Sequence record: PP916316.1
Strand: one strand, 5' to 3'
Source of the DNA: Pseudomonas phage vB_PaeM_HTN3
Length of the DNA stretch: 64,000 nucleotides
The notes beneath the pieces are model-generated. The model did no database searches. It had not been told where the DNA came from and worked only from the letters and a program-made list of their open reading frames with translations. How positions within the stretch are numbered: position 1 is the stretch's first letter; the number at the start of each line of letters is the position of its first letter. A program made the translations under genes and the position numbers. Of this stretch, positions 55,990-56,330 are shown one piece after another.

Positions 55990-56330
55990 GTGTGGAAATA
56001 GCCGCAAATTCCTGGATTGCTATTCTGACTGGGAAGATGGGAGGCCTACTGCCGCGTGGGTTTGCGGCCAAATTCCCTAATTCCCGGTTTTCCGAGCATG
56101 GGTTAAAACTATTCTACAGCGAAAATCGATTGCACAATCCTAATAGAAAAAATCTATCACGGACGTTACCTATCTTTAAAATTAATAAAATTAATGGGAA
56201 TTTGGGAATTTGGAATAGTTTAGTCTTTGAAAGCCTCGCGGCGCTAAGCTTGTACATTACCCGGCAAGTTTCCGATTCCGCTCAACTCGCGGCAGGGTCG
56301 CCGGAAACTTCCGTCCTTCCAAACCATGGG
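55990..56330. repeat. second, diverged copy of the structured non-coding element seen at 9.85-10.33 kb
   Basis: Shares, in the same order, ggaaatagc(c/g)g, gcctactgccgc, aaattcc(c)taatt(t)cc, ctaatagaa, (gggaatttgg)x2 versus (ggtaaattggtaatttgg), gaaag(c/t)ct(c/t)gcggc..ta.gctt, and cc(g)gtcaa(a/g)tttccga. Confidence 0.6.

Follow-up and report, generated by a model that had tools for sequence, protein, structure and literature searches.

Several described phage elements resemble in layout the two intergenic elements, here called A and B, that we analyzed in a 64,000-nucleotide stretch of Pseudomonas phage vB_PaeM_HTN3, a PB1-like myophage of Pseudomonas aeruginosa (genus Pbunavirus; sequence record PP916316.1). 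The whole of this stretch is referred to as the window, and coordinates are those of the window unless another phage is named. B lies upstream of the small terminase gene, terS, and A upstream of a prohead protease/scaffold gene. The packaging (pac) site of coliphage P1 is built of clustered hexamer repeats on either side of a central region in which cleavage occurs, over about 160 bp, which resembles the layout of B; the P1 repeats differ in being Dam sites, cleavage being controlled by methylation, and we know of no paralogous second pac site in P1. In satellite phage P4, octamer iterons occur in two distant cis elements, ori and crr, one of which consists of direct repeats of about 120 bp. 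The P4 iteron sequences are unrelated to those of A and B, and the P4 initiator, alpha, is a primase-helicase of a family that we take to be related to the VirE-like protein encoded beside B; the parallel with P4 does not extend to E. coli phage SP13, in which the B-type copy is not beside the helicase gene. For phage T4, the 'synapsis' model holds that the small terminase reads a pair of similar, pac-like sequences in genes 16 and 19, a few kb apart and near the head genes. The T4 sites are about 24 bp long, lie within genes and are weakly defined, whereas the twins described here are intergenic modules of about 300 bp that occur as a pair across genera.

Further parallels come from Bacillus phage SPP1. 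Its pac site (pacL-pacC-pacR) is like B in that the series cut is flanked on both sides (in SPP1 by regions contacted by the small terminase, TerS), in that it overlaps the promoters and 5' region of terS, as B overlaps a terS promoter, and in that headful packaging runs toward terS, as we propose for B (PMC6316719). The SPP1 terminase also represses its own synthesis (PMC6316719). Unlike in SPP1 pac, the sites on either side of the cut in B are clear, mirrored 8-bp repeats with 110 bp between them, some 590 bp separate the cut from terS, and a second, uncut copy of the platform is found about 20 kb away. The SPP1 replication origins, oriL and oriR, are two distant loci that each have repeats and an AT-rich unwinding region and share one binding protein, and as far as sequence can tell the layout here is the same. 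One SPP1 origin lies in the region of replication genes and the other, oriR, between the portal/MuF and scaffold genes, which is the slot occupied by A. Neither of them holds the packaging cut, unlike B.

In a sequence-only reading of the window, B had been noticed as a diverged copy of A, with about 60-70% identity over some 350 bp and a retained inverted-repeat pair, and all of the motifs quoted in its favour were found at their positions. Pairwise blastn (+1/-1) returned two collinear matches, A 10178-10277 with B 56176-56275 (73% over 101 bp, E 3e-14) and A 9848-10017 with B 55998-56168 (63% over 175 bp, E 4e-9). When the A core was scanned against the whole 64-kb window, the best non-self matches were those in B (scores of 43 and 31, with unrelated sequence at 15 or less), and 300 dinucleotide shuffles of B gave a mean score of 10.9 ± 1.5 with a maximum of 18; B was the sole significant match of A within the window. 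After removal of one copy of the 127-bp tandem unit of A (described below), a single local alignment joined A 9848-10277 with B 55998-56275 at 62% identity over 308 columns, with a score of 48 (z = 25; shuffles 12.5 ± 1.4). A global MAFFT alignment of both intergenic regions was misleading owing to the tandem duplication, and local alignments were used instead. The inverted-repeat pair is indeed kept in both elements. In B, it joins 56068-56085 to 56196-56213 (18 nt, 94% complementary), and in A, 9864-9912 to 10232-10280 (49 nt, 71% complementary), with shorter pairs in addition; both elements are imperfect palindromes. The repeats GGNAATTT, hereafter iterons, are confined to A and B within the window, and the 10-mer GGNAAWTTGG occurs six times in 64 kb, each time within A or B, where 1.05 occurrences are expected. 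With similarity far above chance and conservation as a pair, A and B are paralogous cis elements, as had been proposed, and we regard this paralogy as practically certain.

A and B are alike in three parts: a left arm with repeats in the '-' orientation and GCCGC pentamers, an AT-rich core, and a right arm. In the right arms, a direct repeat pair (GGTAAATTGGTAATTTGG in A, GGGAATTTGGGAATTTGG in B) is followed by GAAAGYCTYGCGGC..., CCCGKCAARTTTCCGA and GCGGC pentamers. The left arm of B (55990-56099) carries the inverted iteron pair CCAAATTCCCTAATTCCC at 56068-56085 and GCCGC at 56001 and 56051. Its core (56100-56195) is AT-rich (G+C content 0.28) and near-invariant. The right arm of B (56196-56330, + strand), which is the block best conserved with A (the match of 73% over 101 bp given above), begins with the direct iteron pair GGGAATTTGGGAATTTGG at 56196-56213, followed by GAAAGCCTCGCGGCGCTAAGC and CCCGGCAAGTTTCCGA.

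A packaging function, which was among those suggested for the elements, is directly supported for B, since two published data sets put the start of the packaging series in the B core. Essoh et al. set the record starts of phages Ab27, Ab28 and Ab29 from reads with a fixed termination, and all three records begin with CGATTGC..., which corresponds to window position 56127. Ipoutcha et al. (PMC10913387) found that 36 of 161 long reads of phage JG024 start at 59,376 ± 5 and reported a matching pac restriction fragment. The sequence at JG024 59375|59376 is GCGAAAAT|CGATTGCC, the exact homologue of window 56126|56127, where the cut reads GCGAAAAT|CGATTGCA and falls within the palindrome AATCGATT. 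In a sample of 60 records, those of Pa193, phage 109 and SIIA-P1 also start at 56127 or within 1 nt of it. The cut-site data thus come from phages of other laboratories that are 84-100% identical to the window across B, and not from the window phage. The cut lies 590 bp upstream of terS (56717), with iteron pairs 42-59 bp to its left and 69-86 bp to its right. Fixed starts at one nucleotide, together with the transcription of terS and the genome ends in related phages (both below), indicate that B is the packaging initiation region, and its core is very probably the pac cut site. Other groups describe Pbunavirus genomes as headful, permuted and without direct terminal repeats.

A regulatory role, likewise suggested earlier, also found support for B. 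Putzeys et al. mapped transcription start sites of phage 14-1 by long-read, cap-selected transcript mapping (10.1101/2023.10.13.562163, supplement). One of these sites, the sigma-70 start P040 at 59399(+), is preceded by ...AGTAATTTGGTAATTTGGTATACTTTAGTATTTGA, which is the right iteron pair, and corresponds to window position ~56230-56231. The transcription unit TU045 (59399-60626), starting from P040, covers terS as a 1.2-kb mRNA (10.1101/2023.10.13.562163), so that a mapped start in the right arm of B transcribes terS; the iteron pair GGGAATTTGGGAATTTGG overlaps the upstream part of this promoter. No 14-1 start site was mapped in the A module in the long-read transcriptome, and the sequence in A that corresponds to the -10 region of P040 is poor and lacks conservation. 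For JG024, a sigma-70 promoter was predicted in the A core. Both downstream genes have a proximal promoter outside the shared module: TAGACG-18-TACAAT at 56590-56619 (+) for terS, with a start at ~56626-56627 that corresponds to 14-1 P041 (59807), and the sigma-70 promoter TTTACC-17-TATAAT at 10385-10421 (+) for the head protease operon, with a start at ~10420 that corresponds to 14-1 P014 (13257). We also considered the 'alternative' promoters P011 and P032 of 14-1, which carry a CTGGG motif, as being the elements themselves; this was rejected because their sequences lie inside genes elsewhere.

The left arm of A (9840-9919) contains ATAGCCGCAAATT, the iterons AATTACC (9857) and GGTAATTTGG (9880), GCCGC pentamers, and GCCTACTGCCGCAAGGC, which forms the left half of the long-range inverted repeat of A. 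The A core (9920-10173) consists of two perfect 127-bp tandem units, 9920-10046 and 10047-10173, each with an iteron hairpin (ATTCCTAATTTCCAAT / ATGGGAAATTAGGAAT) and a very AT-rich palindromic stretch (ACGTTATAATATAACGT). This duplication is missing from the seven other Pbunavirus A loci aligned, which carry one unit. The right arm (10174-10300), the counterpart of that of B, carries GGTAAATTGGTAATTTGG at 10198-10215, GAAAGTCTTGCGGCAGTAGGC and CCCGTCAAATTTCCGA, with GCGGC at 10240 and 10297. The repeats in the A arms are the same as those of B, at similar spacing. A is without the invariant cut-site core sequence of B and has neither of its strand-asymmetric flanks. The left flank of B (55811-55989) is B-specific and G+T-rich (G+T 0.72, C 0.08), carries extra GTGGGAATT repeats at 55861-55870 and 55894-55903, and evolves fast (74% mean pairwise identity). 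The right flank (56331-56716, + strand) is C+A-rich and G-poor (G+T 0.31, G 0.18), forms the 0.5-kb leader of the P040 transcript, and carries GCGGC at 56333, 56356 and 56638. The lack of the invariant core and of the GT- and CA-rich flanks would explain why A is not cut. The record of phage E215 (NC_042080.1) is the only one that starts in A (its positions 1-120 match the window from ~10117, beginning at CAATAGAATTC). We considered it as evidence of a second cut site and rejected it, since it is an unoriented SPAdes contig with no terminus determination; its start is probably an assembly break at the repeat.

Large gaps upstream of the protease gene and of terS are also present in Serratia phage MTx, E. 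coli phage SP13 and Burkholderia phage BCSR52, whose TerS proteins are 41%, 41% and 32% identical to that of the window, respectively. In each of the three phages, the two gaps hold copies that resemble one another: the A-type and B-type copies are 69% identical over 260 bp in MTx (score 84), 65% over 254 bp in SP13 (score 64, or 65 with the common local aligner) and 71% over 155 bp in BCSR52 (score 47). With one local aligner, the z-scores of the A/B pair were 24-53 in four genera, including the window (score 48). Between genera, A-A, B-B and A-B comparisons scored 12-19, which is the range of shuffles, and an alignment of orthologous modules across genera for covariation was impossible at these noise-level scores. 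The 7-9-bp repeats are specific to the genus (ACTTTTCG/CACTTTT in MTx, CCGTATCAT in SP13 and TAGTTAC in BCSR52) and each is essentially confined to the two loci of its own genus, over the whole SP13 genome, the 64-kb Pbunavirus window and about 30 kb each of MTx and BCSR52. The MTx copies also share long near-identical blocks outside the iterons. The B-type module stands next to terS in MTx, SP13 and BCSR52, as in the window, and flanks like those of B recur in MTx (G+T 0.75 on the left and 0.34 on the right) and, more weakly, in SP13 and BCSR52. The whole SP13 genome contains exactly two copies. The B-type one adjoins terS and the end of the genome; 8.3 kb separate it from the primase-helicase gene, near which there is no third copy. 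We thus rejected a miniature inverted-repeat mobile element, as the four genera have just two copies each, in positions that are syntenic between them, and the SP13 genome holds no third. At least four genera have kept the pair, and its two copies evolve in concert. A B-type module is a general feature of the five genera examined, four of which also have the A twin.

The genome ends of these relatives fall in the same place. The direct terminal repeat of MTx (1-3566, annotated from PhageTerm) has its start within the part of the B-equivalent that is homologous to the A-type copy, 376 bp upstream of terS, and the 3,899-bp terminal repeat of SP13, present at both ends of the record, begins in the AT-rich core of its B-equivalent. 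No iterons were found where the terminal repeats end on the right (3566 in MTx, 3899 in SP13). These right boundaries fall in large non-coding gaps (MTx 3221-3600, SP13 3401-4120) that hold no copy of the module.

Within the genus, nine B loci and eight A loci were aligned. Mean pairwise identity was 95.6% for the B core and 90.8% for the B right arm, compared with 92.6% for the terS coding sequence, and 91% and 93% for the left and right arms of A. The B left arm is hypervariable (69% mean pairwise identity, minimum 46%) and occurs in the genus as two or more alleles. The B-left sequence of the window scores 24 against its own A-left and 17 against the 14-1-type B-left, which is a very different allele and scores 12 against its own A-left, like the shuffled scores in the larger comparisons. 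The left-half motifs on which the duplication had partly been recognized (ATAGCCGCAAATT, GCCTACTGCCGC and AAATTCCCTAATTCC) are therefore present as described but limited to one B allele; across the genus, B is conserved in its core and right half only. The A-like character of the B-left allele of the window indicates that the two copies have exchanged sequence. In the long-range inverted repeat of A (14-15 bp), we noticed a compensatory double change, CAAGG/CTTGC in the window and CGAGG/CTCGC in 14-1-type phages.

We tentatively favour a model in which A and B are twin protein-docking modules, B combining the pac site with a terS promoter and A being an uncut twin. A single protein probably reads both copies, as the retention of the pair in several genera and the shared repeats suggest, and the leading candidate for this protein is TerS, an identification that we put forward with reserve. 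In this model, each module would consist of genus-specific iterons in mirrored orientation and mirrored GCCGC/GCGGC pentamers around an AT-rich core. The small terminase would dock on the iterons flanking the cut, the right pair of which overlaps the terS promoter, the terminase would make the series-initiating cut in the B core at 56126|56127, and packaging would run from B rightwards through terS. The same protein would dock on A, before the prohead protease-scaffold-capsid operon, where it may co-regulate the control region of the head genes or pair it with pac. The shared binder and gene conversion between the copies would keep A and B alike. A further step, that TerS, by reading pac and its uncut twin, couples the initiation of packaging to the production of proheads, either physically or through regulation, appears unlikely to us, and so does the corresponding notion of a two-site packaging signal with a co-evolving repeat code in Pbunavirus, Myosmarvirus, Wifcevirus and Bcepfunavirus.

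Several observations weigh against the docking model. No DNA ends have been reported at A, where TerS docked in the same geometry should cut, some groups see no clear PhageTerm peak for Pbunaviruses, and the method behind the SP13 termini is undocumented in the sources examined. Xylella phage MATE2 (PP816325.1, Carpasinavirus; regions 55231-56043, 7595-7732 and 58471-58694) has a TerS whose similarity equals that of the MTx and SP13 proteins, and no module beside terS, which is preceded by just 224 bp of CA-rich DNA. MATE2 also has no A twin, as there is no gap before its protease gene, which overlaps the upstream open reading frame (ORF). Its single module-like AT-rich element comes straight after the primase-helicase gene and 2.65 kb before terS, and has repeats of its own (CGRATTWAAAT), the GCCGC/GCGGC polarity and a CA-rich right flank. 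A search for termini of Carpasinavirus phages, which would tell whether the end goes with the module or with terS, returned no data. Moreover, an AT-rich core (G+C content 0.28-0.35) between mirrored 7-9-bp repeats has the classic look of a replication origin, and the slot of A is that of oriR in SPP1. The modules could accordingly be a twin origin, in which iterons for a phage initiator, such as the P4-alpha/VirE-type primase-helicase, flank an AT-rich unwinding element, while the pac cut and the terS promoter merely share the B gap and pac is recognized from the B-specific flanks. We regard this as the main rival of the docking model, if a somewhat less probable one. In its favour, the primase-helicase gene immediately precedes B in Pbunavirus, MTx, BCSR52 and MATE2, the flanks, found at B and not at A, reappear in other genera, the absence of a cut at A needs no extra assumption, and a tandem duplication of the A unit is tolerated, P4 crr itself carrying a 2x120-bp repeat. 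In SPP1, the two origins share repeats that are bound by one initiator (PMC6316719). A twin origin would, however, make the cut at the module centre in three genera a coincidence, the module then being unrelated to packaging; the SP13 module is 8.3 kb from the helicase gene and the B left arm is hypervariable. The GC skew of co-oriented genes keeps its sign across A in three genera, with no consistent change, and the published minima of cumulative skew lie elsewhere, at 42.3 and 52.4 kb from the terL start; as the skew is weak and follows gene orientation, it speaks neither for nor against an origin.

The overlap of the mapped start P040 with the right iterons of B could instead mean that the modules are operator/promoter cassettes, at which a dedicated phage transcription regulator, bound to the iterons, governs just two units, terS and the head operon, while pac is nearby by coincidence. 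Both modules are upstream of rightward late genes, the iterons occur at these two loci only, and in SPP1 binding at pac represses the terS promoters (PMC6316719). Such cassettes are nonetheless quite improbable, as the A module has neither a mapped 14-1 start nor a conserved -10 counterpart, both genes are served by strong proximal sigma-70 promoters of their own that lie outside the module, and operators alone leave the AT-rich core and the near-identical non-iteron blocks of MTx unexplained. The signs of exchange (a B-left allele that resembles A, and the long identical stretches shared by the MTx copies), the variable copy number of A and its absence in MATE2 would also fit an A with no function of its own, duplicated from the pac region and both maintained and homogenised by gene conversion in a phage rich in recombination. 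That seems to us very improbable for an element kept at the same syntenic site in four genera whose modules have diverged beyond recognition and conserved at 91-93% in Pbunavirus, in genomes that are compact, with ~7% non-coding DNA. The least credible explanation, to which we give hardly any weight, is that of paralogous structured non-coding RNAs, which the sequence-only reading had entertained, or of structured 5' leaders. The P040 transcript does start within the shared right arm and one compensatory change preserves the long-range inverted repeat of A. Against this, there was no Rfam match in the window at the gathering threshold, nor any for B in a permissive scan with E-values up to 1, a tRNA scan of the window found nothing, and the shared arms folded no better than their shuffles (z of +0.77, +0.72, -0.45 and -0.44). 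The 14-1 long-read transcriptome lists no short RNA at either locus and no start in the A module, and the left half of the module lies upstream of the sole mapped start.

Conserved intergenic motifs without an assigned function have been noted before in PB1-like phages and JG024, and a 'putative pac position' was published for JG024 (PMC10913387). The repeat architecture of pac, its paralogue before the head operon and the concerted evolution across genera appear not to have been described, as we found no account of them in searchable papers. Few Pseudomonas phages are used in therapy as widely as Pbunaviruses, whose mode of packaging has been disputed (non-permuted linear versus headful). The published pac position is now tied to a defined sequence architecture, which is also found at the genome end of relatives that have direct terminal repeats. 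A and B with their 8-bp repeat code offer DNA substrates for the small terminase of phage E217, whose structure has been solved, and a testable handle on the risk of generalized transduction. In genome engineering or rebooting, 55.8-56.7 kb and 9.8-10.4 kb should be left intact. If the twin elements are origins instead, they would be the first origin candidates for this phage family.

The window is 98% identical to phage DRL-P1 over 50-60 kb, about 300 related records exist, and 56127-56426 is 100% identical to phage F8. B sits in a 960-bp non-coding gap with the VirE-type primase-helicase gene (ending at 55758) on its left and terS on its right. A Rho-independent terminator found in a terminator scan at 55784-55810 (+) closes the primase-helicase operon and sets the left limit of the B intergenic region; it is invariant in nine Pbunaviruses, and the same hairpin is listed for JG024 at 59033-59059. 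The gene at 56717-57295 (+), earlier described as terminase-small-like, is a small terminase gene (phmmer to PDB 7UXE, the E217 small terminase, E 2.8e-121; phrog_4783). An ORF at 55860-56396 (+, 178 aa; phrog_18478; PJG24_078 in JG024) is annotated as a gene in some relatives and is probably a spurious call. The matching PHROG is made solely of near-identical annotations, the ORF runs across the pac core and the P040 promoter as well as the GT-rich flank, and no gene is annotated at this place in the 14-1 RefSeq record. A sits in a 640-bp gap, to the left of which is a small ORF ending at 9803 that follows the portal and MuF-like genes. The gene downstream of A (10446-11882, +), the first of the head-tail operon, had been called a scaffold gene; it is more exactly a prohead protease/scaffold gene (DUF2213; phrog_3778, 1e-223; PF09979, 2e-32). 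The gene order around A and B agrees with that annotated in 14-1. The 14-1 RefSeq record puts the protease start 39 nt downstream of the ATG at 10446, at window 10485; with the upstream ATG, the leader of the P014 transcript is only ~25 nt long and has no Shine-Dalgarno sequence.

Some minor features were also noticed. Phage steven (MT119370) is 100% identical to the window over 10047-10445, and a repeat_region is annotated there. MATE2 has an unannotated gap of 985 bp at 61198-62182. The palindrome AATCGATT at the B cut is 8 bp long (56123-56130), and a weaker inverted copy, CATTCGATTT, is found at 56435-56444, close to the start of the ISPAA97 record (PP314035). CTGGG, the core of the non-sigma-70 promoter motif of 14-1, occurs in both left arms (9868-9872 and 56029-56033); the 14-1-type alleles have not kept it, and no mapped start site coincides with it. 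The pentamer GCCGC stands almost exclusively to the left of the AT-rich core and GCGGC, usually as YGCGGC, only to its right (9750-10356 and 56001-56638 in the window). Both elements show this polarity, as do all the genera examined despite their different longer repeats, and the pentamers could be the site for a conserved enzyme.

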